From IMG/VR virus record IMGVR_UViG_3300042901_001417, positions 1 through 57,777 of that record: a stretch of 57,777 nt of DNA; one strand, 5' to 3'. Shown here piece by piece: positions 6,001 through 22,069 of the stretch. Source of the DNA: a virus (Duplodnaviria; Caudoviricetes). The notes under the pieces were generated by a model that saw nothing but the letters and a program-made list of their open reading frames with translations, did not search any database and was not told the DNA's origin. The position numbers and the translations under genes are program-made. Numbering within the stretch: the stretch's first letter is position 1; each line of letters begins with the position of its first letter.

Positions 6001-7162
6001 AGTGTTCGACATCATCGGCAAGAATGCGGACGATGCCCCGCGCTTCGTGGGCCTGCTGGAAGGGTTGCTCCAAGGGAAATCCCCCGAAGAGGCATGGAAG
6101 GGCGTGAGTCGTGTTCTCCTCGACTATGACCCCAAGAAGTTCGGGCCGCTGGAAAACAAGGCACTGAAGAAAATCTTCCCCTTCTACTCGTTCCTGCGTC
6201 AGCAGTCGGTGTACCTCGGTTCGGAACTGATGACCAATCCGACCGGCAGGCTGGGGAAACTGATCCGGGTGGCTCGCCTGTCCCAACCAAACAATCAGTT
6301 TCTGCCTGAGCATGTGGCGGAATCACTGGCTATCCCTGTCGGTGGCGAGTCCGAGGATGGCACCCAGAACTACCTCACGGGTCTCGGGTTGATGTTCGAA
6401 GACCCACCGAAACTGCTCTCGGAGGGACCGTTCGAGTTCGCGCGTGCTGTACTGAGTCGAACGAACCCGTTGATTAAAGGCGTAGCAGAGGCGGGGCTGG
6501 GGCGCAGTGCATTCCAGGGCGGACCATTGGGCGCGCGGGATCTGGCGGATATGGACCCGGCACTCGGGCGAATCTTCACCAATCTGGGGCTGCAGGATGA
6601 GGCTCCGGGCGGGAATGCACGTCCGGCGTTCGGCTCTCGACCGCTGGAATTCTTCCTGTCGAATAGCCCAGTGTCGCGCATTCTCTCGACGGTCAAGACG
6701 ATCACGGAGGAAGGCGACCGGAAGAACCCGCTGGAGAAAGCCATGAACGTGCTCACAGGTCTGCGGATCACGTCGGTGTCCCCACAGGTCCGGCAGCGTG
6801 GGTTGCGCGAGTATGTGAATGCCCAGGCGAAAGAATTGGGGGCACGTCCGTTCTCGGACTTCACGATCTCAGATGCCCTGCTGGACGATGCCCGGGCACG
6901 GAGTGAGGAAGATTACCAGCGACTGATCGCGATTGACCAGCTGAAGGACACGTGGGACCAGAAGCGGAAGGGTGAGCAGAAGGCCAAACGTGAGGCGGAA
7001 GGGACCGTCGATAAGCGGACGGTGCGGGCGGAGCAGACAAGAATACTGCGGCGTACGGGACGCACAATGACCAAACAGGAGCGTGATGAGCGGGTCCGTG
7101 ATGCTATGCGCGCCCCGTACGGCAGTAGTTCGTATTACCAGATTCTGACTGGTATGGAGTGA
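2..7162 (+). CDS. Giant polyvalent / virion-ejected protein (ART-like, IQEIQSD domain, zincin metallopeptidase, LPD38-like C-terminus); 5'-truncated
   Basis: Frame is open from nt 2 (ORF track 62..7162, 2366 aa). Motifs: FKNWFGDW..VYHGT..HFTD..GYDG..YIVFDPTQIKS (ART-PolyVal-like); HVRMDD..IQEIQSDLHQ; STLVHEASH..EEVFARGFEDY (MPTase-like); FPFYSF near the C-terminus. Confidence 0.8.
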   Translation, partial: GYTTLSGLEKVGNLLDLPGSMVRDVLVWDNPFDQLLSPLSHSSTGKSASGRDVLSRNVLTSGLVSENKETGFVPFADPGEFLQDVAGFGVELATDPLAWLSGALSKAPAAAAKTVKAAGVVDDAADAGKALIPSVGDVQRFAGDPLKEAAGAAVDIPKKPGIWRSIGRGVEKVADFTDRYDPGFQLGKKGREVYDNSPELQSALGKVTPYLKELASSHLSEPMKKVAALRAMRDATGKMGANEARVSKMATDTFGPDADAVMTLMKSHANMWAEHTKQDADEWFARVQDIRKSDPAAVGADALMQSPETLRSPEFKNWFGDWEADPVNASKVVDHTGSPLRVYHGTGTPDLGVADAVKHNESLRKAAGEWDKYTAAEKEAGPLRKSAQQAADAVKSAFADAVGDVASKKQKHIPFDHKVYDFSSKEALAKSIYKEATYTEQEAMWTRGTFRELNGVVSTTIDDPTFARLAEAHRSWVNAEEATKSINPRPSSERPAQWMFRNESPAFNTRMYGANDPGYYAAGAHFTDNADEAGEYASHQMRGNPGVIPAYVNIRKPFVLGETVDAAAEQFITEAVDQHRQVAMRNSRGDLDALARAFATGRTEGLKRAGYDGMVVKTGKGTEYIVFDPTQIKSTMNRGTFDPNDPNILFQSAPYKAEPFYSKIMDAVDAGKIPNKVGRDQLMKTLVGYGVKQEELADMQRELDALFAAAPDGKVSKDDVFDLAADKAWNGVQVTELSDAKDREALSRVDNMRFTPPEGIPDSESYQALSRATERARVLDSLTPVRFRGYQVPGGVPDTYRELLIRHPSAKGFIEGNHFSGLADDVIAHVRMDDVNLPDGSKALRIQEIQSDLHQNARNLQQDTMSRDARIPRKLADGKTNPAFTQWVKNNEHRYPIESFYDGVNDWSPIPEFAQWDIDGTTKTVLTSPSTGLDIARRVVDGKEQYGLFDGAEIIDDAWYDSVSQAKHDAKFSAPSTQELPPYAAFKASWHELALKSVIRKAAEEGYDKIALVRGADIANAVGGPPDALGKFYDEKLTNTLKKMVVKRGGKVDDVMRNEPLQWMPASGGTPNKYLADLAAGATVEAIVEADGAVSATVYKGGRYHSQHYAASLADLDDKLLDANRLTTFEIPQSLRDEVLQKGQPLYQQGARGAVQFAEDGKVVIHAFQSADMSTLVHEASHVFRKSLEELNGDLLNRAAEAVGVPKGSKWTREHEEVFARGFEDYMRTGTAPTRELRSVFYKFKQWLTDIYKSLVGSDPGKVSPQLRSVFDEMLGSKMAPGPSVTGSHNIDSFVMNLMGLSDVVGKQALDLADATRRTFKQQMTPGPRGTQGEVMQRASELHTLKEEEFVKEASQSVSAVSNAINEIVGYRPGSVDEAAEVAPHALLADDVVTAAETGDYSALPEQLIEPAKQMAATGMANQRKIQEAGHTRPMLSDQFVEHFPHSLNPTLQAWMDTQDFGVHGIGSPKADAASNARANQSARDDLFRDAVQGRRTWNGVTSDPEILEMLKDYTVVTDAAAKQGMIDAATAKIAEKYGSEIDPRMIVPTEGMYADKITVLDSLKNEIELPWEVFQKEYVRVNPVNDMRTVQGRLAEFQSPPLFVKAADALLNGPLAQRFMPSRKNMENRHAELAKWMSDKYQPLQGNKGMFSSEPITSFQERIFRDGHTYGALKAVPEILTGALKSRLILPPGGKFDSTGYTLESILTSSLYSRSKRGMWYDQMADTMPDLKAVRDSFMQKENPDGFYAFMDNMRMDRDLAQEILQTADMLQKGSQTLAPMSKAFRGATALFKSGVLTHPGRIIRDVASAVVALGYNSMLSTTSLEHGIKALMHNGSEAVQQIPAVKAWMSKYGIPDTPEGATRALHEIYASLKGHGQSLYRDPNLDTMSLAEQLKSGMEGIEQAFPGTGITSFGSPLQSTKRILSAGGPQRMWRQLKTEREAGFFGDAGAQLSRAWQSGTWNPFDIAGVPHVVMTDAKVKQGIRRGDVRASSEFKPAKVFDIIGKNADDAPRFVGLLEGLLQGKSPEEAWKGVSRVLLDYDPKKFGPLENKALKKIFPFYSFLRQQSVYLGSELMTNPTGRLGKLIRVARLSQPNNQFLPEHVAESLAIPVGGESEDGTQNYLTGLGLMFEDPPKLLSEGPFEFARAVLSRTNPLIKGVAEAGLGRSAFQGGPLGARDLADMDPALGRIFTNLGLQDEAPGGNARPAFGSRPLEFFLSNSPVSRILSTVKTITEEGDRKNPLEKAMNVLTGLRITSVSPQVRQRGLREYVNAQAKELGARPFSDFTISDALLDDARARSEEDYQRLIAIDQLKDTWDQKRKGEQKAKREAEGTVDKRTVRAEQTRILRRTGRTMTKQERDERVRDAMRAPYGSSSYYQILTGME

Positions 7163-8129: not shown

Positions 8130-8456
8130 CTATTCCCCCACGGGGAAACTGAATCCTGCCTCAATGGCTGAACAGCGAATCTGATGCACTCGCTGTCGAG
8201 ACAGGCGAAACCGTGTGGCCACGTCCGTCTGTTTTTCCCCATCCAGCAGTGCTTTCAGGATCTGCATGGTAGACGGGGCAGTGTAATCCCGGGCAGCACG
8301 TGCCGGTTTCACGCTGAACTCTTTGCACGCAGACCAAACTGTAGACAGGCTGACCTTGTGTGCCTGGCTGGCGGCTGCAGCACCATGCTCTGCGGCATAC
8401 TTCGCAATGTTCTTCCGCCGTTCAGAGCGGTCATCGTGTGACAGGTAAGAAGCCAT
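8130..8456 (-). CDS. Helix-turn-helix DNA-binding protein
   Basis: Two HTH-like segments (AASQAHKVSLSTVWSAC; QTDVATRFRLSRQRVHQI). Confidence 0.65.
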   Translation of the reverse strand: MASYLSHDDRSERRKNIAKYAAEHGAAAASQAHKVSLSTVWSACKEFSVKPARAARDYTAPSTMQILKALLDGEKQTDVATRFRLSRQRVHQIRCSAIEAGFSFPVGE

Positions 8457-8475
8457 AACTCAATCGTACTCCCTT

Positions 8476-9135
8476 CTATGCCACCACGCAGTCACGAATC
8501 ATTTCGCCTGCCTCAATGGCTGACAGCATTCCACGGAAATTGCACTGACAACGCTTCGCCAGTGCCACGTATTCGCCCAGCAGAGCGCCGCCCAGACCCT
8601 CTGCCTCTGCAATCTCCATTGCACGCTTTGCGAAAGCGTCCAGATACCGCACATGATCCAGCCGGAACTCAATGCACCGGCTCAACAGTGGATGTGCGTC
8701 GATACCATCGAACAGGGACTGCTGCCCTGCACTGGTCGTGGTGAAACACCATGTAACATGGTTCGGGATACGCTCCAGAACCACCAGCAGTTTGCGGATC
8801 GTGTCTTTACGAAGGCCGTGCGATTCATTCAAAAGCACTGCACGCCCAGGCTTGTCACCGATTGCCCTGAATCGCAGGTTGCGTTCGATGTCATCCAGTT
8901 TCGCGGGTGTGATGTCCCCAGCGTCCAGTTCGATAAAGTTTTCGGGATCTGAAACTTCGGCTGCGACGAGGTACGCAATCGTGGTTTTCCCAGTGCCCGA
9001 CAGTCCAGACAGCCAGAACGCACGCCCACCGAGTGACCCACGTTCCTTCATGCGGGCAATGGACACTTTGACCGCCTTGTGGCCGATCACTTCGTCCCAT
9101 GAACGCGGACGAACCTTTTCAAACAGCATCTGCAT
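8476..9135 (-). CDS. Clamp-loader (DnaX/RFC)-like AAA+ ATPase, short form
   Basis: LFEKVRPRSWDEVIGH, Walker A GLSGTGKTT, Walker B LLNESH, SRC motif; start at ATG 9135 after AAGGAG. Confidence 0.8.
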   Translation of the reverse strand: MQMLFEKVRPRSWDEVIGHKAVKVSIARMKERGSLGGRAFWLSGLSGTGKTTIAYLVAAEVSDPENFIELDAGDITPAKLDDIERNLRFRAIGDKPGRAVLLNESHGLRKDTIRKLLVVLERIPNHVTWCFTTTSAGQQSLFDGIDAHPLLSRCIEFRLDHVRYLDAFAKRAMEIAEAEGLGGALLGEYVALAKRCQCNFRGMLSAIEAGEMIRDCVVA

Positions 9136-10034: not shown

Positions 10035-11013
10035 AAGCAATACCAGACATCTGCAGAGCAGTCGTGAGTGCCTTCTGTGACATCTCACGTCCACTGCCCC
10101 ACCATGATTCACTCAGCCGGCGATCAGCAGAACGTCCTGCCTGCCAGCAGACATACTCGGTGACACCGTTGTAAGCGTGCCACCAGTTGCTGCCACGATT
10201 GCCCTTGCCATGTGTGGCGTTCTCGGTGATCGCAGCAACCTTGGACTTCTCAGCATTCGTCCACTTGTGGAACTCAGCAGGAGCATCCACAACGATCCGA
10301 GCAAACTCCCGCAGGTCAACCCGGCTGACCCCACGCTGTGCCAGCTGCCGGAACTGATCAGCCGTGAGATTGAACACCTCCTCGCCCTGCTGCATGGCTG
10401 ACCGCAGCGTCTCCAGATTCTTCTGCAGGCCACTGGTGTGCAGGCAGCGAATCAGTTTCGACTCACCACCATGAGCAGCAGCAGACAGCGTGTTGTGACA
10501 GACCACACGGATCGGAGTGAACCCGAACCGCACAGCGAAACTGCCATCGTGACCGTGGGCCAAGAGCATGTATTTGGCAACCGTGTCGTTCGTGTCGATC
10601 ACGGTGTCCTTTCCAAATTTCCCCAGCATCCAGACGCGGCGACCGTTGAACAAACTGCCGCAGGTCTCGATCTGCAGCGTCTTGTCACGCACCAGCGGTT
10701 CGAACAGGTCGCTCATCTGGGTGTTCTGGAACGGCGTGTAGTCCGGTCCCACGACACCCAGAACGTCACCAGTGTCATCCCGGACAATCGCACCGTGATT
10801 GCCGTTCTTGACACGGGTAGCCTCGTCCGTCTGCTTCACCAGTCTGCCATCAGCCAGGAACATCGGCTGCTTTGTCACGGACCAGTTCAGCCCGGACAAC
10901 TGTAGTGCCTCACGTGCCGAGGCAGGCGGTTCTGACAGTGTCGTGCCCAGACCGTGCCACGGCGTCTGACCCACTGCGATCATGTTGTCTTTGGAAAACA
11001 AATTGTGTGCCAT
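10033..11013 (-). CDS. DUF932 / TIGR03299-type phage/plasmid protein
   Basis: MAHN..PWHGLG..LNWSV..GSLFNGRRVW..HDGS..TPIRVVCHNTL. Confidence 0.88.
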   Translation of the reverse strand: MAHNLFSKDNMIAVGQTPWHGLGTTLSEPPASAREALQLSGLNWSVTKQPMFLADGRLVKQTDEATRVKNGNHGAIVRDDTGDVLGVVGPDYTPFQNTQMSDLFEPLVRDKTLQIETCGSLFNGRRVWMLGKFGKDTVIDTNDTVAKYMLLAHGHDGSFAVRFGFTPIRVVCHNTLSAAAHGGESKLIRCLHTSGLQKNLETLRSAMQQGEEVFNLTADQFRQLAQRGVSRVDLREFARIVVDAPAEFHKWTNAEKSKVAAITENATHGKGNRGSNWWHAYNGVTEYVCWQAGRSADRRLSESWWGSGREMSQKALTTALQMSGIA

Positions 11014-11040
11014 CGTGCAAACCCCTCACATGAAACAGGA

Positions 11041-11110
11041 ACAGGCTCATCAGTGCAGGCACAGTACCTGCATACACTCCGGGTTCCCAATCCGAAGTGT
11101 TTCGCCTTGT
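11041..11110 (-). ncRNA. Hammerhead ribozyme, type II
   Basis: Minus strand: ACAAGGC-GAAA-CACTTCGG(loop)CCGGAGTG-TA-TGCAGGTA(CTG)TGCCTGCA-CTGATGA-GCCTGT. Confidence 0.92.
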
Positions 11111-11127
11111 TGTGTGGACGCTACACG

Positions 11128-11712
11128 TTATTGGTTATCGAACACGTGCAGACCATGATCACCCCAACTCGACCAAACGTCCCCGCTCGACTGCAGGTCG
11201 TTTGCCATTCGCTCCCAGTCCACGTAATTGATCGGTGACCACCAGTTCTTGTCGTCACGCTGATACTCGCCGCACTCCTCCCAGTAATTCTCCACGTAAT
11301 CGGCAAGCGTGTCCCAACAGCCACGATACTGCTCACGGAACTTGTCGGTCGCGTCGTCCCAGTCAATGTCATCGCTGTTCTGATTGGCAACCCACCGCTC
11401 GAATGCCTCGGTCTCAGACTCGCTCAGATCAGCAATCGCGTCGGTGTACGCTGCCAGTGCGTCGATATCTTCGTGCTCACTGGGTCGCCACTGGCCAAAG
11501 CCCTCGAAATCATGGATCGCCCATTCTTCGGCTGAGGGAACCATCTCGCCAGTATCCGGATCTTCCACTTCCACGTTCGGGTACATCGACTTACGCAGCA
11601 TTGCCGCGATGTCGCTACGAATTGCATCTGCGTCCTGCTCGCAGTCGATCCACTCACCATGCAGGACACCAGAGTTGTACGAGGCCAAGCAGGCCACATA
11701 AATACGAGGCAT
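11128..11712 (-). CDS. ardA: Antirestriction protein ArdA (DNA mimic)
   Basis: PRIYVACLASYNSGVLHGEWID..EEWAIHDFEGF..YVDWERMANDL; very acidic; start at ATG 11712. Confidence 0.92.
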   Translation of the reverse strand: MPRIYVACLASYNSGVLHGEWIDCEQDADAIRSDIAAMLRKSMYPNVEVEDPDTGEMVPSAEEWAIHDFEGFGQWRPSEHEDIDALAAYTDAIADLSESETEAFERWVANQNSDDIDWDDATDKFREQYRGCWDTLADYVENYWEECGEYQRDDKNWWSPINYVDWERMANDLQSSGDVWSSWGDHGLHVFDNQ

Positions 11713-11757
11713 GAGTAAACCTTTCTGAGAGTTTTGAAAAACCGGACTGAACACTCC

Positions 11758-11787
11758 ACTATAAAGGAATCACCCGATCGCAGGATT
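11758..11787 (-). promoter_or_regulatory. Repeated early promoter-like element, copy 1
   Basis: Minus AATCCTGCGATCGGGTGATTCC-nn-TATAGT; 21/22 identical to the copy at 14573..14594. Confidence 0.6.
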
Positions 11788-11802
11788 ACGCAGGTGTGAA
11801 GT

Positions 11803-11876
11803 GCATTCCGACTTGGGACGGATGGCCCACATTGAGCCAGTGCATTACAGCCCGAAGGCTGCCCTCTGCATTACGC
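11803..11876 (-). ncRNA. Twister ribozyme, P5-type permutation
   Basis: Minus strand: GCA-GAGGG-CAGCC(TTCG)GGCTG-TAA-TGC-AC-TGGCTC(AATGT)GGGCCA-TCCG-TCCC-AA-GT-CGGA. P1-P4 present, pseudoknots CCC/GGG and AC/GT, P5 GCGT/ATGC. Confidence 0.88.
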
Positions 11877-12662
11877 TGTCTGAAGTTCCTGTGTGCGTTC
11901 ATGCTGCCGTCGCTGCTCCTGAGCATTGTGCCGTGCCCTTCGCATCGTATGCACCGCCTGCTTAAAGTCAGTGATACGGTCGTAGTGGTCCAGAAAGCAG
12001 CAGATTTCGTAGCGGGTCAGTCCCTTAAAGCAATCGCATGCCTGTAGAAACTTAGCAGCGTCAGACCGTGCCATGTCAGGATCGTCCACACGGGCAATGG
12101 CCTGAACAGTCGCCACCCACTGGATCACCCCGAATGGCTTGTGATGGTCACCCATGTGAAGGAATCGCAACACACGGTCGACTGCGGAATCCTTGTCGTC
12201 GCTGTATGGACGCTCAATCTTGTGCCATCGCTTGTCGTGTCGCTTTGATTCACTGTGCGATTTCTTGCCACCGTCCTCGAATGTGAAGTATGTGTCTTTG
12301 TTGTCCACGTACTTCAGGGTCAGCAGGAAGGCGATCAGCTTATCGCTCGCCTCCGAATGTGCTCGCCAGAACCAGCGAATAGGCTCTGTGCCAGACTCCT
12401 CACCGTCAACCGACACAGGAACGCGATCCAGAGACGCTGCCAAACTGGCCACAACATCCACCAGATCCTCAGCCTGCACGAGACAGTCCGGAGAATGCTG
12501 CACTTCACCATCACCCATCGTGTCATACTGGCTCAGATGACTGCTGATACACCCGGTCATCCGTCGCCAATCGTAGGCAGGGTTGTCGCCATCACTTTCG
12601 TACAGGCGATACCTCCACGATGGACGTGCCAGGGACGGGAATACGAATGTCGACTTGCTCAT
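11871..12662 (-). CDS. Hypothetical early protein
   Basis: Long ORF; start MSKSTF after AAAGGA. Confidence 0.65.
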   Translation of the reverse strand: MSKSTFVFPSLARPSWRYRLYESDGDNPAYDWRRMTGCISSHLSQYDTMGDGEVQHSPDCLVQAEDLVDVVASLAASLDRVPVSVDGEESGTEPIRWFWRAHSEASDKLIAFLLTLKYVDNKDTYFTFEDGGKKSHSESKRHDKRWHKIERPYSDDKDSAVDRVLRFLHMGDHHKPFGVIQWVATVQAIARVDDPDMARSDAAKFLQACDCFKGLTRYEICCFLDHYDRITDFKQAVHTMRRARHNAQEQRRQHERTQELQTA

Positions 12663-12757
12663 AGCAACGATCCTTTTGAACGGGTAACACAAGATCCCAC
12701 CCGCAACCACTGCAGGTGAGCACGAACAGAACAGCGATCCTTCGCATGGGGAAATCC

Positions 12758-13117
12758 TCAGTCGATGTTGTGCTGAGACAGCGCTAATTCGATGTTGCGG
12801 ACAGCAACTTCTATGTGTCCGAATGTATTCAACTGGCTTTCGGTGTTCAGGAGTGCTTTCAACACCAGTCGCACAGCGTGCAACTCAGCAAGATCACCAT
12901 CCAGATGGTCCCACTTCATGCGGTCAATCATCATGTGACGTTCCGCTGTGCAGTCGGACGAACACTGGTATTCATGCAGTGCGTCCATGATCAGCTGCCG
13001 GTAGTCCAGATATCGCTCAGAGCACAGATCCTCACGCACCAGCCATGTCAGCGTCAGTTCGCGTCGATCAGGCTCAGGAGCCAGCCCCTTGCCCAGCGAC
13101 TTTTGTTTCAGGCTCAT
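12758..13117 (-). CDS. Hypothetical early protein
   Basis: Start MSLKQK after GGAGG. Confidence 0.6.
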   Translation of the reverse strand: MSLKQKSLGKGLAPEPDRRELTLTWLVREDLCSERYLDYRQLIMDALHEYQCSSDCTAERHMMIDRMKWDHLDGDLAELHAVRLVLKALLNTESQLNTFGHIEVAVRNIELALSQHNID

Positions 13118-13130
13118 TTGGTAACCTCCA

Positions 13131-13174
13131 CAGGCGGAATTGCCTGAATGAACCTCAGCCGGTCTCTGAGGCTC
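13131..13174 (-). ncRNA. Two-hairpin motif (AGAYCGG / AATTYC loops), copy A
   Basis: GAGCCTCAG(AGACCGG)CTGAGGTTC-ATT-CAGGC(AATTCC)GCCTG. Confidence 0.6.
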
Positions 13175-13205
13175 GATTCGGACCATTCACGTGCAGGTGT
13201 AATGT

Positions 13206-13583
13206 TTAGGCTGGGGCCACTTCCGTGACATGATCACGAAGGAAGTGGTTGGTGCGACAATGCTTCAGCACCCGTGCCCATTTGCCTTCGCTGGTGTAAT
13301 CACGCTGTTCCCATGACAGGAATGCTTTGGCCGCCTGAATGGCGAGTGGCACTTTATGTGCCGGAAATGCGTCAGGAAACGCGATTACCACAGCACAGGC
13401 ATCGCAGTCTTCCTCGTACCAGCGACCACCAGCGAACGTGTGGAAGCGGAATTTAGACTGAAGTGCGGCATGTCGCTCAGGTGACAGTTCAATGCCACCA
13501 TGACTGGCTGTGTGATGGCTGAGAATGCCATCTGCGATCTCATACGTGCTGTCTGCAATACCCCAAGGTGTCTGGTGTTTCAT
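13206..13583 (-). CDS. DUF7007-like protein
   Basis: TPWG..IADGI..TASHGG..LS..R..WYEEDC motif set. Confidence 0.7.
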   Translation of the reverse strand: MKHQTPWGIADSTYEIADGILSHHTASHGGIELSPERHAALQSKFRFHTFAGGRWYEEDCDACAVVIAFPDAFPAHKVPLAIQAAKAFLSWEQRDYTSEGKWARVLKHCRTNHFLRDHVTEVAPA

Positions 13584-13596
13584 ACAATGCACTCCC

Positions 13597-13639
13597 CGAG
13601 CGAAATTGCTCGTATGACCCCCTGCCGATCTCAGGGAGT
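13597..13639 (-). ncRNA. Two-hairpin motif, copy B
   Basis: GACTCCCTG(AGATCGG)CAGGGGTC-ATA-CGAGC(AATTTC)GCTCG. Confidence 0.6.
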
Positions 13640-13671
13640 CTAACCAGCAATTGCAGCACCCCCGCTACACG

Positions 13672-13929
13672 TCAGAAGTCAGTTTCGCCTTCCAGTGCGT
13701 CTTCATCCCACTCCAGCAGGTCCAGCTCGTCATCGTCGTCAATGAACAGCGGTTCGGACCAATCAAGCGAGCAATCGTCTGCCATGCTGTCGTCAGCCAG
13801 CCACGGAAACAGTGCGTCTTCCTGCTGGCGCTGCTCGTCATCGAACACATCGTGTGCAAGCTCTTTCGCTCCCATGTCGAAATCCTCATCGTACAGGTAA
13901 GGGTGTTGGTCGAAATGACTCCCGGACAT
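13672..13929 (-). CDS. Extremely acidic small protein (candidate DNA mimic)
   Basis: 31 D/E against 2 K/R in 85 aa; GGAG upstream. Confidence 0.65.
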   Translation of the reverse strand: MSGSHFDQHPYLYDEDFDMGAKELAHDVFDDEQRQQEDALFPWLADDSMADDCSLDWSEPLFIDDDDELDLLEWDEDALEGETDF

Positions 13930-13946
13930 GTTGCTCAGTCTCCATT

Positions 13947-14147
13947 TCAGGCGTTGTACCCAGCGTGTTTTGTGGCCGGAACAGCCGGACCCAGAATACG
14001 CCAGTGTGAAGGGTCGTGATCCATACCAGATGCCTGCAGGACACGAAGGCGAGCAGCCTCAGCATCCGCACAGGTCTTGTGACAACTGTAAATGTGCCAG
14101 TTCCATGACGCGGAAGGCGTCGGTGACCATTCAAGTGACCAGTCCAT
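13947..14147 (-). CDS. Small hypothetical protein (frame uncertain)
   Basis: Fills the gap in the operon; an alternative frame is 13886..14134. Confidence 0.35.
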   Translation of the reverse strand: MDWSLEWSPTPSASWNWHIYSCHKTCADAEAARLRVLQASGMDHDPSHWRILGPAVPATKHAGYNA

Positions 14148-14511
14148 GCTGCATGACCCCCAGAATGCCCATCAGGACGCTCGCATCCGTCAGGTAGTGA
14201 ATTGTTGCCCCCAGACCACGATAGTGATCCACGTACTCGTCAATCGAGTAGTAATCGTACGGCTTGTCATGCGGGCCAAGAATGCTCGTGTCCCGGCAGT
14301 ATCGCGGCGGGAATCGGTACGTCTCAGCCGTTCGCATGTCAATCACAGGAATGCCTGACCCCACGTACTGTTCGAGCAGAGCACCGATGTCGTACCCCGT
14401 GTGCGATCCAGACGATGAACCACCATTGCCCGTGTCGTGAACCCGAAATGTCACTGTCGCCTGACCCCCGAGTATGGGAATCGTGGCGTATGCAGGAATC
14501 AGTTTTCGCAT
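14131..14511 (-). CDS. Hypothetical early protein
   Basis: 126-aa ORF after GAGGGAG and the repeated promoter. Confidence 0.6.
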   Translation of the reverse strand: MRKLIPAYATIPILGGQATVTFRVHDTGNGGSSSGSHTGYDIGALLEQYVGSGIPVIDMRTAETYRFPPRYCRDTSILGPHDKPYDYYSIDEYVDHYRGLGATIHYLTDASVLMGILGVMQHGLVT

Positions 14512-14564
14512 GATTGTTGCTCCCTCAGAAAAAACTCGGTGAAAAACTCAAAACTGTCTGCCCC

Positions 14565-14594
14565 AATATATTGGAATCGCCCGATCGCAGGATT
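14565..14594 (-). promoter_or_regulatory. Repeated early promoter-like element, copy 2
   Basis: Minus AATCCTGCGATCGGGCGATTCC-nn-TATATT. Confidence 0.6.
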
Positions 14595-14595
14595 G

Positions 14596-14826
14596 TCAGC
14601 TGTTCAGATCGTGCACGATGCCCAGCCACATCCCAATGGACCGCACCATCACGCAGAATGAGGTTCTCCCCACTTCCACACCCGATGGCAGGAAGCCGCC
14701 GTGCTGCACCCATGACGTGATTGAATCCACCAATTCCTGCGCCCGCTCCACGTCCGAAACAGGCATCAGCCCCTCATCACCCGAAATCAGGTACATGAGT
14801 TCCTTCCAAGCCGCATTAACGTCCAC
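14596..14826 (-). CDS. Small conserved phage protein (MDxNA...W..GGFLP)
   Basis: GAGGAG RBS, GTG start, WVQHGGFLP motif. Confidence 0.65.
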   Translation of the reverse strand: MDVNAAWKELMYLISGDEGLMPVSDVERAQELVDSITSWVQHGGFLPSGVEVGRTSFCVMVRSIGMWLGIVHDLNS

Positions 14827-15304
14827 GGTGTATGCTCCTCAATCATGTGTGAAGTGACCAGAACCACTATCGCATCGTGTGATCGCACAGGATGCCCTCA
14901 GAATCGATTGCGTGCGTTTGGATGACAAATCCATCGCACAGGATGTTCAGGCCGTCAAATCGCCTGTAATGCGTTCGCTACATGTTCGCGCCTTCTTTAC
15001 TGAGCATTAAAGCCCAGCCCCTCGCAAACGCGAGCGGTGCCCGGAGTCTGCCGAGCCCCGCCCGTGATTGTGCTCCGGACTGCATGGACTGCAGCGCGGC
15101 GCATATATGGTGCCGACACGCTGCAGATCAGTCTGAGACCGGAAAACACTGAGATTCCGTCGACTATGCTGGAAACGCGGGATCGTGGGAATGAGGACCG
15201 GGCCAATGGCGAGCACTGCCCGGATTATGGGGACTTACCCGCACTACGGCAGATTCCTGGCAAATAGTCGCGGGTCGATCCGAAGAAAATAACGTATACA
15301 GTGG

Positions 15305-15331
15305 TTGACAGTGTAGTGATGGTGCTACACT
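15305..15331 (+). promoter_or_regulatory. Sigma70-like promoter overlapped by a TGTAG-N8-CTACA operator
   Basis: TTGACA plus extended -10 TGcTACACT (15-nt spacer); inverted repeat AGTGTAG-N8-CTACACT. Confidence 0.6.
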
Positions 15332-15370
15332 TCAGAAGGTCACTAAAAATCCTCATTCAAGGTTAAGACA

Positions 15371-15934
15371 ATGAACGAAGTAGACTGGCTGAAAATCAGA
15401 GCGACGATCCGGAGACACTGCAGAGCGGCAGCAGGACACGAGGTCAAAGGATTGCGGCGGATCACTGCGGCGCGAATCGAGGAAAACGATATCGACGATG
15501 TCTGCCAGGAATGCTGCGGCCTGGCATGGTTGAAAATCGAAAACGGAATGGCGGTCCCGCTCGCGATATGGGTGGCGGTTCGGTCCATTGGACGTATCAA
15601 TCGAGAACTGGCAGAAGGCGCACAGTGTGAATCGTTTCGCTGGGAGGAACCGGACATGCGGTCTTCTCAATGGTATATCGAACAGCGCGGCCGGTTCGAT
15701 ATCCAAGACGCCAACGGCGAAACGCAGTACACCCCGGAACATCCACGACCGGACCACATCCGCGCTGCTGTCGGCCTGGCAATTGTCGACGGCAGACCGA
15801 TGGCAGTAACTGCAGAACGGATCGTGAACGGTGAACGTGAAATTGAGGAGCGGCGCACCTTTGAGTGCTTCACGGCAGCGCAGCGCGTCAAGCGCAGTAT
15901 GCTCGACCGCTCGCGACCTGTGGTTTTCTGCTGA
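15371..15934 (+). CDS. Hypothetical protein
   Basis: 187-aa ORF downstream of the promoter. Confidence 0.55.
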   Translation: MNEVDWLKIRATIRRHCRAAAGHEVKGLRRITAARIEENDIDDVCQECCGLAWLKIENGMAVPLAIWVAVRSIGRINRELAEGAQCESFRWEEPDMRSSQWYIEQRGRFDIQDANGETQYTPEHPRPDHIRAAVGLAIVDGRPMAVTAERIVNGEREIEERRTFECFTAAQRVKRSMLDRSRPVVFC

Positions 15935-15946
15935 GATTCCGAGACA

Positions 15947-15991
15947 CTGCATATTCAGACCGGGGATATGCAGACTCCCGCAATTTCGCGG
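15947..15991 (+). ncRNA. Two-hairpin motif, copy C
   Basis: CTGCATATTC(AGACCGG)GGATATGCAG-ACTC-CCGC(AATTTC)GCGG. Confidence 0.6.
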
Positions 15992-16021
15992 TAATTATCA
16001 CTCTGAGAAAGGTTAAGAACA

Positions 16022-16468
16022 ATGGCCCTCGCACACACGAAAACAGCATCCGGAGAGAAAGCACCACCGAAATGGACCGCTCGCCCGGAACAATCCATCA
16101 TGCTGGTGGATTCCGGAGCGCAGACCGGACCCGTCTACAGTATGTCGAAAACCGCAGCAGACCAGATCGAGCAGCTGCGGAAAACATCGCTTCCCGCAGA
16201 CATGGTTGCGGGAATGATTCAGAACATTACTGCAGGTGATCGCGCAGCATGGGATGCCGCGCACCCCGCACCAAAACGAAAAACACCACCCGTGGTTTTC
16301 ACGCCGTACGATCCTATTCCGGGCGCTGGTGTGAACAATACCACCGCGCCAATGTCCTGGAAATTGTCAGGCAATGGTCAAGTCTGGGCGAATGAGGAAC
16401 AGTGGTTGCTGATTTGCGACCATGCCGCACGGATCAAGTCTGCCATCATCAAACGCCGAGACTCCTGA
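16022..16468 (+). CDS. Hypothetical protein
   Basis: 148-aa ORF with GAAAGG RBS. Confidence 0.6.
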   Translation: MALAHTKTASGEKAPPKWTARPEQSIMLVDSGAQTGPVYSMSKTAADQIEQLRKTSLPADMVAGMIQNITAGDRAAWDAAHPAPKRKTPPVVFTPYDPIPGAGVNNTTAPMSWKLSGNGQVWANEEQWLLICDHAARIKSAIIKRRDS

Positions 16469-17846
16469 GAAAGGAGAGACCGTGAAAATCTGGCCCTGGG
16501 ACTGACAGAATAGATTGACGATATTCAGCGTATTACCTGGGACACAATCCCGCGTAATACGCTTTTTTTACGCGCCCACAGAACCGCCCGGCACCGACAC
16601 CGACCGCAGGAGCGACAATCCCGCAGCGATGCTGAGAACCGCAGACTGCAGGTCACTGAGCACAGCACAGCAATCACCAGCTTCCCCTCTAAGATCCCCC
16701 AAAGCACCGCTCGACAGCATCCAGAGCACAGCACAGCACTGCAGAACCGACAGCACCAGAGGTCAGAAACAGAGGGTATTAAAAGAGGATAAATTCATCC
16801 GATTTAGACGTAACTCCTTACACAGCAAGGACTTAGGCTAGCGCCGCAGCGCATCGTCAGGCGTCCGTAGGGTGTTGCGCCGAAATGACAGCCTCTGTGG
16901 TCACAGCATCCGAGCACATCCACAGCACCACTCCCGATGGCTCATTATCGCCGCAAGTCTTTACAGATTCACACGTTACGCCGACCGGGCGGGGGCTTTG
17001 CCCTTCGCGCCGTCATCCTCTACTTACCTCCATCCCCGAATTTTTCCACATTCCACGACTTCGGCCACAGTGGTCCAGCATACACGGTGGACGTTGGGCT
17101 GTGTACTCGGCGGTGGTTCGTGGTTGCGCTTGTGGCAGTGCTGTTGGTCGGGTGCGTATCCGTGGGCGACCGTGGGCTTCCAGTGCTGGGCGAGTCGTTG
17201 TGGTCGGGAGGACATGAGGTCGCGGGTTTCGTCGGACCTGTATGGCGAGTCGTTTGTCGCGACCGGGGGATGTTGCGCTTGGTGGTGGGGGCCGGGTTGC
17301 GCTTGCGGTAGCTGCACCCCCCCTACCCCCCCGGAGTGTGCACAAGGGGGGGATTTAACTGATTGACGTGCGGGCCGCGTGGTGGTGCTCTCGAAAGCCT
17401 GACCTACCACTTATGTCTCCCGCTCGGGTCCTCACCAGTTCGTGCCTCGGCACATGCAGTATGGTGAGTCGCACTGTTCGCTGGATCTTCTCGTGTGATG
17501 GCACGGGCAGCTGGTGTCAGGGGTTGAGTGCTTGATTATGGGCAGGTTCTCAGGGTGTTACCTGTTTTGGGCCTCCAGAACATGGGCATGGTATAGCAAC
17601 CACTCTGGCAGGTCGTCAAGAGATTTCCTTTGTAGTGGACTGATTACAGTGGTCGGCGGTCGGGTCGGGTTTCTTCTCACTCTCTCAGACTCAGTGTTTT
17701 ATAAGGTCGGACAGAAAAATCAGCCAATCTGGAAACTACTCGGCCACAGTGGCCTTGACCATAGTGGTCACTCGGATAGAGTGCTCACGTGTAGTGAAGG
17801 CACTACAGGCGGCGTTTTTTGGATCTGTTTTCAAGGGGTGTGGGTT

Positions 17847-19617: not shown

Positions 19618-20421
19618 ATGGCTGAGAATCCGTTCAAGGTGGGTGATGTGGTGGTGTGTGTCAAACCATGTGAAAGTGTCATGGAAGAGGGCAGTGAGTG
19701 GGTGGTAACGGGGATCGGTGGGCAGTACGTGTATTTTAATAATGATCCGGACAGCGGCTGGTATGCCGACAGGTTTAAACTGAAGGAGCCTGATCTACCA
19801 GAGTTCAAGCCCGGTGATGAGGTTCAGTGCATTCGCGATAAAGGCATGGAGCACGAGATCACAAAGGGTCGTGTGTATCGGGTCAGGGATTGTGGCGACC
19901 GGCACGTTCATCTGGAGGGAGTTGTCCCGTGGGTATTCAAGGACCGGGTGCAGTTGGTCCCAAAGGTTCCCGAGCCGGCTACCAACGTCCACTGTGGTGG
20001 TCCCTATGTTGCGGTCAGCGAGCACAGTCGGGTATGTGTGGAGCTCGCCAATGAGCGTGCCAGCAGTGGGCAGGTGATTCAGCAATTGAAGGACGACTTG
20101 CATATACTGGCCAAGGATCACACAGCACTGGAGAAGCAGCGAGACCAACTGCAAAGCGAACTTGCTCATGCGAGGGCTGGTGGCATGTCATGCTGTGCCC
20201 CAGAGTGGACTCCGATGGAATGGACTCCGCTGCAGCGTGCAGAACAGCCACAGCAGTCACAACTCGACCGATGGGCTGAAATTGCCTTGCCGGCGATTAT
20301 TCAGGTGGAGTGCGGTTCGCACGGGATATCGGATAACGAGGTTCCCGGGATTGTTACCATGGCATACGTGGTGGCACGAGCCATGATGCAGAAGCAGTGT
20401 GACATGCGCTGGGAAGAGTAG
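19618..20421 (+). CDS. Phage protein with tandem FKxGDxVxC (SH3-like) modules and a coiled coil
   Basis: FKVGDVVVC and FKPGDEVQC repeats; GAGGAG RBS. Confidence 0.6.
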   Translation: MAENPFKVGDVVVCVKPCESVMEEGSEWVVTGIGGQYVYFNNDPDSGWYADRFKLKEPDLPEFKPGDEVQCIRDKGMEHEITKGRVYRVRDCGDRHVHLEGVVPWVFKDRVQLVPKVPEPATNVHCGGPYVAVSEHSRVCVELANERASSGQVIQQLKDDLHILAKDHTALEKQRDQLQSELAHARAGGMSCCAPEWTPMEWTPLQRAEQPQQSQLDRWAEIALPAIIQVECGSHGISDNEVPGIVTMAYVVARAMMQKQCDMRWEE

Positions 20422-20452
20422 AGATCGTTCATCACTTTCTAAGGAAACCACA

Positions 20453-22069
20453 ATGAAAAAGGCTTTGATTTACGCTCGGGTGAGTTCACAGGAGCAGGCG
20501 GTGTCGGACACGGCATTGCCATCACAGGTGAAGGGGCTGCAGAAGTTCGTCGAGCAGGAGCAGATTGCTCTGTATGACGACACGAACTGTGCGTGCCCGG
20601 GCGTGTTTGTTGACCCCGGAGTATCTGCCAGCAAGGTTCCGCTGTTCAACAGGCCCGGATTCGTGGCACTGTGGGCGTGCCTGAATGATGGCGATTCCGT
20701 TGTCGCTGAGTCGATGAGCCGGATGTTCCGCAGTGCGCTGGACTTCGCTCAGTCGTGGCAGATATTCGAGAAGCGTGGCATCAATCTGATCTTTCAGGTC
20801 GGGCAGATCGACATGTCTTCTGCCACCGGAAAACTGATTGCCTCGGTTATGGCGGCGTTCGCTCAGTTCAAGACCGACATCATGTCTGAGCGGATCAGAG
20901 AGGGTCACGCTGCCAAGAAGCGGGCTGTGCAGGAAGGCCGGGAGTATAAGAAGCACAAGCCTGCGGCAGATCCTGTCAAGCCAACCACGGTCTCTCAGGT
21001 CGTGGCTCAGTTCACAAAGAAGGAGAAGGAGGAGAAGCCGAAAGGCCGGATCTGGTCTTATGCTCGAGTGTCGACCGATGGGCAGACCACCGAAAGTCAG
21101 ATGGCGACCATTGAGCGGCTGGAGTCGCAGTACATGGATCAGGGGTATCAGGTGGTTGAGCAGCCGTACGAAGAACAGGCCGTGTCTGCGTATCGCATGG
21201 CGTGGCGCGAGCGACCGATGGGCAAGGTGATATTCAATGGTGCCCAAAAGGGGGACGTGATTATCGCTGCCCGGCTGGATCGTATGTTCCGATCGATCTG
21301 GGACATGTGCGGCACGCTTCAGGAACTGGAGGAGCGTGGTGTATCTGTTCGTGTGGGTAACTGTGTGGCGACAGATACTCCTGCCGGTCGCATGATGCTG
21401 GGGCTGCTCGGGGTTATGAGCGAGTTCGAGTCTGCAGAGCACTCGGAGAAGATGACTCGTATCTTCGAGTTCTGTCGTGCTGAGCGCGGCAAGTGGCTGA
21501 GTGCCACTGTACTGCCATCGTGGCTGCGGGTGCATAAGGATGAAAAGGGCGAAGTGTCATTCGTCCCGTGTAAACGGCTGATTCGCGATATCCTGCTGCT
21601 GAAAGAACTGTCGAATTCAGGACTGAAGCACGAAGAGGCGTGTGATGAACTGGAGCGGATATCAGCTGCTCGCGAGAACCGCCCGATTCTGCCGTCGCAT
21701 AAGGCTCCTCAGAAGTCCCTGTCCAAGAAGATCAAGCGGGAGTATGGCGAGGAAGCACAGGAGAGGTTTCGCCTGTGGTGCAAGGTGCGAGGAATCACGG
21801 AGTGGGAAGAACTCTCTCGTCCGATGAGTTACGAGTACGCTCGCGATGTGCTGCGCAAGTGGGACAACAGTGATCTCTCGAAGTACATCGAAACACTGGG
21901 GCCGGAAGGTATTGAAGCCATCATGCTGGACGCTGCTCAGTTGGATGCTGAGTGCCCGCAGTGGGATAAGAAGCGGAACGCCAGGCTGGTGCGGCAGATG
22001 AAGAAAACCGGCGAGCTCACGGTGTCGAAAACACGGAAGATGGTTAACCCGGAGATCGTGTATGTCTGA
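20453..22069 (+). CDS. Serine recombinase with two tandem catalytic domains
   Basis: Domain 1: YARVSS (20471)..RPGF..SRMFRS..TGKL..FAQF. Domain 2: YARVST (21059)..RPMG..LDRMFRS..AGRM..MSEFE. Confidence 0.85.
   Translation: MKKALIYARVSSQEQAVSDTALPSQVKGLQKFVEQEQIALYDDTNCACPGVFVDPGVSASKVPLFNRPGFVALWACLNDGDSVVAESMSRMFRSALDFAQSWQIFEKRGINLIFQVGQIDMSSATGKLIASVMAAFAQFKTDIMSERIREGHAAKKRAVQEGREYKKHKPAADPVKPTTVSQVVAQFTKKEKEEKPKGRIWSYARVSTDGQTTESQMATIERLESQYMDQGYQVVEQPYEEQAVSAYRMAWRERPMGKVIFNGAQKGDVIIAARLDRMFRSIWDMCGTLQELEERGVSVRVGNCVATDTPAGRMMLGLLGVMSEFESAEHSEKMTRIFEFCRAERGKWLSATVLPSWLRVHKDEKGEVSFVPCKRLIRDILLLKELSNSGLKHEEACDELERISAARENRPILPSHKAPQKSLSKKIKREYGEEAQERFRLWCKVRGITEWEELSRPMSYEYARDVLRKWDNSDLSKYIETLGPEGIEAIMLDAAQLDAECPQWDKKRNARLVRQMKKTGELTVSKTRKMVNPEIVYV

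Follow-up and report, generated by a model that had tools for sequence, protein, structure and literature searches.

What does a short two-hairpin motif do when it recurs in the gaps between the genes of an uncultivated tailed phage, each time shortly before a ribosome-binding site? The question is raised by the IMG/VR virus record IMGVR_UViG_3300042901_001417 (Duplodnaviria; Caudoviricetes), of which we analysed positions 1 to 57,777. This whole stretch of 57,777 nucleotides (nt) is called the window here and is also referred to as genome G000; it is estimated to be 84% complete. An earlier note, made from the sequence alone, had described the motif in three copies between positions 13131 and 15991 and had proposed that it is a new ribozyme, a processing site or a protein-binding cis element. 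We found that the element is a structured, strand-specific, cis-acting RNA of the sense strand. Judged by sequence comparison, it is T7-like in layout without homology to the T7 sites, and it belongs to no Rfam 15 family. Its best reading is as a modular signal on phage mRNA, in which the core of the second hairpin would be the constant part, and an upstream strand (strand X) and the first hairpin would be added in intercistronic copies.

The three copies were confirmed at the positions given before, with the start of one of them, copy B, moved by a single base (13640..13597(−)). Copy A as a whole occupies 13131..13189(−) and consists of strand X (13189-13178), hairpin 1 (13174-13150; a 9-base-pair (bp) stem with the loop AGACCGG at 13165-13159), a 3-nt linker (13149-13147) and hairpin 2 (13146-13131; a 5-bp stem with the loop AATTCC at 13141-13136). 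It begins 17-18 nt past the stop codon of the open reading frame (ORF) 13206..13583 and is followed by the Shine-Dalgarno (SD) site GGAGG (13129-13125) and the ATG (13117-13115) of a gene for 119 amino acids (aa) with no Pfam or PHROG match. Copy B (13597..13654(−)) has the same parts: strand X (13654-13643), hairpin 1 (13640-13616; 9-bp stem, loop AGATCGG at 13631-13625), the linker (13615-13613) and hairpin 2 (13612-13597; 5-bp stem, loop AATTTC). It begins 17 nt past the stop codon of the ORF 13672..13929, and the SD site of the downstream DUF7007 gene (GGGAG, 13596-13592; ATG 13583-13581) abuts hairpin 2. Copy C (15933..15992(+)) stands in the rightward operon. Its strand X (15933-15944) overlaps the stop codon of the ORF 15371..15934, hairpin 1 (15947-15973) has a 10-bp stem and the loop AGACCGG, and hairpin 2 (15978-15991) has a 4-bp stem and the loop AATTTC. 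Downstream of copy C are a purine-rich SD region (GAGAAAGG, 16005-16012) and the ATG (16022-16024) of a 148-aa gene, also with no Pfam or PHROG match. The earlier claim that an SD site and an ATG follow each copy was therefore borne out, with ATGs at 13117, 13583 and 16022, as was the claim that the stems differ among the three copies while their pairing is kept.

In all three window copies the loop AATTYC of hairpin 2 is closed by a G-C and a C-G pair. The resulting 10-mer GCAATTYCGC has three exact occurrences in the window against a shuffle mean of 0.27, a count reached by none of 100 shuffles, and all three occurrences lie 15-16 nt downstream of an AGAYCGG. Single-sequence folding of the three copies gave z-scores of −2.3 to −3.5. 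A covariance model (R1) trained on copies A and B and two foreign copies, with copy C left out, recovered copy C in the 57.8-kb window at 30.1 bits (E-value 1e−7); its other scores there were 16.9 bits for the antisense of copy B and at most 10.4 bits for everything else. Copies A and B scored 72.9 and 72.4 bits with R1. A second model (R2) yielded the same three matches, at 51.5, 72.7 and 26.5 bits for copies A, B and C. The partial copy that the earlier note had suspected at 15127..15151 was not upheld: its AGACCGG (15136-15142) has no closing stem and was reported by neither R1 nor R2. The site (15136-15160(+)) lies in the divergent control region, and 7 nt on from AGACCGG it carries GAGATTCCG, with which strand X of copy C starts; no hairpin 1 or hairpin 2 follows, and it may be a relic or a product of chance.

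We found relatives of the element in other phages. Scans of viral contigs keyed to AGAC-CGG or AGAT-CGG together with GCAATTYCGC returned 56 and 40 loci, with true hairpins in one locus each (L032 and L098), and the same core in genome contigs gave at least 120 rows, with the architecture in none among the matches listed. The two true loci led to the records G001, with one copy, and G002, a complete 70.7-kb phage with terminal repeats that carries five copies on one strand within 3.5 kb. Scans keyed to the flanks of the element added two related complete phages (G003 and G004) and the metagenome contigs L286 (three copies) and L253 (one copy). Altogether 17 unique copies pass R1 (E-value ≤ 1e−4). 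Because the search patterns for copies outside the window prescribed some of the sequence, the conservation of these copies is partly built in. No close relatives were found in a search of viral contigs with the DUF7007 protein, a BLAST search of one copy against 50,697 cultured phage records gave chance-level matches only, and a BLAST search with window positions 11000-17500 gave a 70-nt ArdA match only.

The relatives show which parts of the motif are kept. Both loops had been described as conserved, and this holds for the core of hairpin 2, which turned out to be the core of a wider family, but not for AGAYCGG in hairpin 1, which is a local feature present in 7 of the 17 unique copies. The others have another AGANYGG (2 copies), CGACUUU (1), a tetraloop (6) or a different loop (1). 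Loop 1 was accordingly dropped as a conserved feature, the loop-keyed scans of viral contigs having returned almost entirely chance matches (1/56 and 1/40 true). The conserved parts across copies are strand X and the block AYUC-R-GGCAAUUCCGCC, with copies B and C and two others deviating from the 12-mer GGCAAUUCCGCC. The internal loops vary among variants in sequence and in size, from 1x1 to 4x4.

The two hairpins drawn in the earlier note are both present, but the drawing was incomplete and missed a third helix, formed between the upstream strand and hairpin 2. This helix was seen on folding each copy with 10-14 nt of upstream sequence. The 12 nt of strand X, upstream of hairpin 1, pair with a stretch that runs from the linker through the 5′ arm of hairpin 2 into its loop, and strand X, hairpin 1 and the 5′ half of hairpin 2 then form one irregular long hairpin that excludes the full hairpin 2. 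The lower stem of the long hairpin has 7-11 pairs with a 1x1 or 2x2 mismatch (7 perfect pairs in copy B), and in window-type copies a 2x2 internal loop lies beneath the 9-10-bp upper stem, which is hairpin 1. Minimum-energy folding gave the long hairpin in 13 of the 17 unique copies, including copy A, with a gap between the two folds of 0.1-7.6 kcal/mol; in copy C the folds are almost equal in energy (−20.9 vs −20.8 kcal/mol). Its length is also restricted: 25 of the 30 long hairpins scored are 20-24 steps long (21-24 steps in 11/11 of a first set and 20-24 in 14/19 of a second), as compared with 4 of 61 shuffled controls passing the same filter. A pairing of the CGG of loop 1 with the YCG of hairpin 2 or with an upstream TGGTY, suggested before, was not supported because loop 1 is not conserved in the relatives; the upstream TGGTY is part of strand X, whose partner is hairpin 2 and not loop 1.

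Covariation was counted in 15 copies aligned to the long-hairpin model, including copies from other phage contigs. All cells of the nine pairs of hairpin 1 were paired, and eight of these pairs had changed on both sides. The 12 pairs between X and hairpin 2 were paired in 79% of cells, with three changed on both sides, and the five pairs of hairpin 2 in 83%, with two changed on both sides. None of 500 shuffles reached the observed covariation score in either count, and over the whole structure 88% of cells were paired, compared with 28-49% in slid controls. Column 54, in the 5′ arm of hairpin 2, has two alternative partners and covaries with each: its pairs with column 9 are C-G, U-A or U-G, and those with column 65 are G-C or A-U. 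Hairpin 1 contains 14 G-U cells and zero mismatches, and one pair between X and hairpin 2 is U-G in 12 of 15 copies. These cells would be mismatches on the other strand, and therefore the structure belongs to the sense transcript.

The copies occupy a narrow niche between genes. Strand X starts 0-18 nt past the upstream stop codon in all nine copies of G000, G001 and G002, hairpin 2 ends 0-20 nt before an SD site in 14 non-redundant copies, and an SD site and an ATG lie downstream of all 17 unique copies. As had been noticed before, this is the same kind of gap that ribozymes occupy: a Twister-P5 ribozyme lies between a stop codon and an SD site both in the window and in contig L286. The flanking genes are mosaic, with one gene of L286 in common with each of the window, G001 and G002, and with nothing in common between the window and G001 next to the element.

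Hairpin 2 is more widespread than the complete element. It is a hairpin of 4-5 bp with the loop AAUYYC and the consensus GGCAAUUCCGCC, positioned 0-20 nt upstream of the SD site. We scanned viral contigs with the pattern GGCAATTCCGCC, followed after 1-7 nt by GGAG, and obtained at least 118 loci; the counts that follow hold among the matches listed. An ATG stands 3-13 nt past GGAG in 58 of 100 unique flanked instances, against an expected share of about 17% (our estimate from 11 positions x 1/64). The fourth stem pair is paired in 43 of the 58 ATG-linked instances (C-G in 20, G-C in 18) and in 20 of the 42 hits without an ATG, while the fifth is paired in 20 of the 58 and is not kept. Local G+C content ranges from 28 to 75%. 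Strand X and hairpin 1 accompany hairpin 2 in 18 of the 58 instances, in forms that differ greatly in sequence and partition. Among the 40 ATG-linked instances without them, seven have a near-consensus sigma-70 promoter, the −10 box of which ends 8-14 nt before GGC in six cases. Such a promoter was found in 0/18 of the instances with X and hairpin 1 and in 1/42 of the chance-like hits, and its shuffled rate is 0.85%. Several of the hairpin-2 promoters lie just downstream of terminator-like T-runs. In the window, a promoter scan of positions 12500-16600 gave no sigma-70-like site.

The genes downstream of hairpin 2 are mutually unrelated. Of 53 scanned among the matches listed, four encode a major capsid protein, two a HARE-HTH protein, and one each a lysin, DUF6876, DUF7007 and DUF932, and the rest have no assignment. 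In four related contigs (L339, L348, L386 and L412) the hairpin-2 core and GGAG stand directly before a major capsid gene of 437-439 aa, and therefore the leader is not confined to early genes. A G+C-rich variant was seen in L312, L315, L318, L397, L414 and L418, in which the UUCC of the hairpin-2 loop is the pairing partner of a strand X that is itself SD-like (GGAGG); L312 and L318 each carry two copies of this variant about 310 nt apart.

Of the three functions proposed earlier, a processing site fits these results best and a new ribozyme fits them least, as no unpaired core is shared. We tentatively favour, as a model by analogy, an intercistronic processing signal of the ribonuclease III (RNase III) type, laid out like the early sites of phage T7. 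In this model the long hairpin, with about 22 steps or about two turns of double-stranded RNA, would direct cleavage by an endoribonuclease specific for double strands, most likely the RNase III of the host, with the cut close to the internal loop beneath hairpin 1. Cleavage would separate the cistrons and leave hairpin 1 as a 3′-terminal hairpin on the upstream message. With X removed, hairpin 2 could form at the new 5′ end, directly before the downstream ribosome-binding site. The twister and hammerhead ribozymes would perform the same job in neighbouring gaps, and where a promoter lies directly upstream, hairpin 2 would already be 5′-terminal, X and hairpin 1 being absent. The model would account for both helices, the length of the long hairpin, the niche and the promoter alternative. 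If it is right, a widespread and previously undescribed RNA signal, interchangeable in function with self-cleaving ribozymes, organises phage early anti-defence operons, and the element illustrates the way in which phages divide long messages and provide each piece with a cap. Annotators of uncultivated phages would also gain a marker of true start codons and of the boundaries between cistrons, and the element would offer a compact and apparently host-independent expression cassette.

The T7 sites R0.3, R0.5, R1, R1.1 and R1.3 are reportedly RNase III sites (described by Dunn and Studier in 1983) and are not marked as such in the T7 annotation that we examined. When folded here, the T7 early sites showed a lower stem, an internal loop and an upper stem of 9-13 bp, followed by an SD site and AUG. 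The element resembles them in lying between cistrons of an early operon (that of T7 begins with an anti-restriction gene), in folding into an irregular hairpin that spans about two helical turns and has its internal loop beneath the upper stem, in having the SD site and AUG of the next gene within a few nucleotides and in occurring in several copies per operon. It differs from them in sequence, as R2 gave at most 7.2 bits over T7 positions 400-7000, with no match at the intercistronic sites. In the element the lower stem is conserved, its 3′ strand also serving as one half of a second conserved hairpin, and the upper stem varies, whereas the T7 copies share the upper stem and the internal loop. 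For our element, cleavage is a prediction.

The predicted 5′-terminal position of hairpin 2 recalls the 5′-terminal stabiliser hairpins of bacterial mRNAs of the ompA type, reportedly described by Emory, Bouvet and Belasco in 1992. Hairpin 2, too, is a small hairpin upstream of a ribosome-binding site, and it would lie at or within a few nucleotides of the predicted 5′ end of the transcript. Promoter spacing predicts such a position in 6 of the 40 instances without X and hairpin 1 among the matches listed, whereas the window copies would have to be cleaved as proposed to reach it. Unlike the ompA-type stabilisers, which have no conserved sequence, hairpin 2 has a loop and closing pairs that are conserved across very different phages.

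Several results weigh against an RNase III-type signal. Changes on both sides of the X helix are modest (3 of 12 pairs) and come from few independent lineages. The hairpin-2 state is the minimum-energy fold, or is tied with it, in 3 of 17 copies, including copy C. RNAalifold prefers hairpin 1 with a 4-bp hairpin 2 and retains two pairs of the X helix, from an alignment that had been fitted to the long hairpin, and either fold may be the one that forms. The contrast between promoter and X rests on small numbers (7/40 vs 0/18 among the matches listed), and the likeness to T7, where R2 finds no site, is one of layout and not of homology. The model would leave unexplained the strict conservation of GGCAAUUCCGCC in contexts of 28-75% G+C, as RNase III needs no conserved sequence and any stable hairpin would do as a 5′ cap. 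A sequence-specific reader and a coupling switch therefore stay serious rivals, and the conserved 12-nt core of hairpin 2 in very different phages raises the question of what reads it.

One of these rivals, which we consider rather unlikely, is a translational-coupling switch. The 5′ half of hairpin 2 would pair either with X or with its own 3′ arm, and a terminating ribosome would melt X, allow hairpin 2 to form and so promote initiation, making downstream translation dependent on upstream translation. This would suit the covariation of both helices on one variable column (54), the small energy difference of 0.1-7.6 kcal/mol between the folds, the position of X within or near the reach of a terminating ribosome (0-18 nt past the stop codon) and the closeness of hairpin 2 to the SD site, which it can abut. 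However, predicted SD accessibility with X masked shifted both ways in 15 copies, with no consistent change, and a switch needs neither the constant length of 20-24 steps nor a stable and strongly covarying hairpin 1. In addition, we know of no role of hairpin 2 in initiation. A simple SD sequestration switch was also considered and was rejected for the lack of a consistent change in predicted accessibility.

Unlikely to a further degree is an operator, in which a sequence-specific trans factor would recognise the AAUYYC loop together with the G-C pairs that close it, and X and hairpin 1 would do no more than modulate access. Such a factor might come from the host, as a protein, the ribosome or RNA polymerase, or from the phage, as a fast-evolving protein. 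An operator would explain what cleavage does not, as GGCAAUUCCGCC is kept in contexts of 28-75% G+C, the motif is linked to a start codon (58/100 vs about 17% expected) and the fourth stem pair covaries (C-G 20, G-C 18; paired in 43/58 vs 20/42), all among the matches listed. Moreover, the downstream genes are unrelated (capsid, lysin, genes in an anti-restriction context), which suggests a general expression signal. Against this, no candidate partner emerged, with only the serine recombinase common to the three genomes compared. The apparent invariance of the 12-mer is also partly built in, because the 12-mer was prescribed by the pattern with which the wider set was gathered, and copies B and C and two others differ from it. 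A related proposal that we regard as equally doubtful is that hairpin 2 (GGCAAUUCCGCC) is a sequence-specific docking signal for a universal host machine, the ribosome or RNA polymerase, and that X and hairpin 1 are a built-in riboregulator, or else a new minimal self-cleaving module, and keep hairpin 2 concealed up to the reading of the upstream cistron or the cleavage of the RNA. Docking on a universal host machine would explain the retention of GGCAAUUCCGCC in phages of 28-75% G+C without shared proteins. If true, the element would represent a new class among phage leaders or riboregulators, as opposed to an ordinary RNase III site.

Much less probable than these is a new small self-cleaving ribozyme that does the job of the neighbouring twister and hammerhead. 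The element is found in the same gap as Twister-P5 in two unrelated contigs and matches no Rfam family, and ribozyme classes have reportedly been found through this kind of genomic association by Weinberg et al. in 2015. However, no unpaired nucleotides are shared beyond the loop of hairpin 2, loop 1 is varied, the internal loops differ in size and sequence among variants, and the sole strongly conserved block also stands alone, without X and hairpin 1. A ribozyme is unlikely because there is no shared unpaired core. In niche and in its neighbours (ArdA, DUF932, RadC and a polyvalent protein) the element is like the twister and hammerhead ribozymes that phages carry between cistrons and the RAGATH motifs found beside these; it is unlike them in having no Rfam 15 match and no conserved unpaired core.

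The earlier note could not match the motif to a family and had advised a check of RAGATH-type motifs. RAGATH-6 and RAGATH-18 are Rfam families (PMC13085918). We compared the sequences with Rfam 15 (4227 models), which includes twister, hammerhead, pistol, hatchet, twister-sister, RAGATH-6 and RAGATH-18 models, and no family in it, these included, matches the element. At gathering score the whole window gave Twister-P5 at 11807-11870 only, and at E-values up to 10 no match overlapped any copy in window positions 11000-17000 or 13090-13700 (611 bases). In eight related loci, the only match at gathering score was a twister, in L286. Candidate RAGATH motifs are said to be listed in the supplementary files of Weinberg et al. 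from 2015, and a motif described only in those lists could match the element. A full-text literature search for the 12-mer GGCAAUUCCGCC and its variants gave, among the matches listed, unrelated papers only.

The ribozymes themselves have the following positions. The Twister-P5 ribozyme of the window (11807..11870(−); RF02684, 41.6 bits vs a gathering score of 37.6) lies directly after the stop codon of the ORF 11871..12710 and upstream of the ArdA gene, in the operon of copies A and B. Between the ArdA and DUF932 genes of the same operon is a hammerhead type II-like element (11039..11107(−)) that scores 22.8 bits with RF02276 and so stays under the gathering score of 37; its cores CUGAUGA and GAAAC could be aligned, and it is probably a divergent hammerhead. 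In L286 the three copies of the element and a Twister-P5 are on the same strand, with the ribozyme starting 1 nt past a stop codon and ending about 9 nt before GGAG and an ATG.

A cis-acting antiterminator like the put sites of phage HK022, in which two nascent stem-loops bind RNA polymerase and cause terminator read-through in early operons, is highly improbable. The two stem-loops on early, divergently transcribed operons would agree with it, as would the lack of a common phage protein, which fits a conserved host machine. The position of put sites is set by promoters and terminators, with few copies per operon. Here, in contrast, the copies are tied to the next ribosome-binding site (0-20 nt before the SD site), up to five of them occur within 3.5 kb of one operon (G002), and hairpin 2 also stands before late genes such as that for the major capsid protein. 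Just as improbable is a feature of the DNA, either a mobile regulatory cassette or recombination point for early-gene shuffling or a hairpin in single-stranded DNA, which would suit the mosaic flanking genes, the unrelated downstream genes and the lack of any likeness between the window and G001 next to the element, but G-U is tolerated on the coding strand only (14 vs 0 in hairpin 1, and U-G in 12/15 in the X helix), the orientation always matches the genes with an SD site and an ATG following, and a repeated RNA signal could bring about gene shuffling as a by-product, so that this reading is compatible with the others.

Other known kinds of element were compared as well. PeSLs, reportedly the "mobile regulatory cassettes" of T4-type phages described by Arbiol, Comeau and Krisch in 2010, are like the element in being short, repeated stem-loop expression signals between small early genes in mosaic regions. 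They carry an early promoter, unlike the intercistronic copies here, of which 0/18 among the matches listed have one, with none in the window scan. Early promoters of the N4 type serve a giant virion RNA polymerase and consist of a DNA hairpin of 5-7 bp with a 3-nt loop. This identity was rejected, as the giant ORF of the window (2-7162) is polyvalent and has no RNA polymerase match, and the loops of the element have 4-7 and 6 nt. A single-stranded-DNA promoter of the kind found in plasmid leading regions was also rejected, with a stem of about 22 steps that was judged from the sequence to be too short for both a −35 and a −10 box, and no sigma-70-like site. Set against the usual consensus sequences, the element has the wrong spacing and the wrong motifs at its ends for a sigma-54 promoter or an integron attC site. 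A solitary CRISPR repeat acting as a decoy was rejected because the stems vary between copies.

We also looked at the proteins encoded around the element. In BLASTP comparisons, the sole protein common to G000, G002 and G003 was a serine recombinase; the large serine recombinase of the window is encoded at 20399-22069(+), and all three phages are probably temperate. Two further proteins were considered as partners of the element and set aside. A protein of 66-77 aa with no family match (window 13947-14147(−) and L227 4753-4986(+), 45% identical) is encoded inside the element-carrying operon in both of these otherwise unrelated phages. The 66-aa protein of the window (13947-14147(−)) is common to G002 and is absent from G001, G003 and G004. 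The element-carrying operon of G001 (L032 4866-5369(−) and 8432-9019(−)) encodes a 167-aa CsrA-domain protein (E-value 4e−10) and a RadC-like JAB protein, and the CsrA-domain protein has no counterpart in the window. A host factor is suggested by the fact that these comparisons turned up no candidate partner encoded by the phages. In the window, the leftward operon encodes a weak HNH-like protein, small unknown proteins, DUF7007, ArdA and DUF932. The giant ORF 2-7162(+), of more than 2386 aa and truncated by the start of the contig, encodes a polyvalent protein with an ART-PolyVal ADP-ribosyltransferase domain, a distant homologue of which is encoded in G003.

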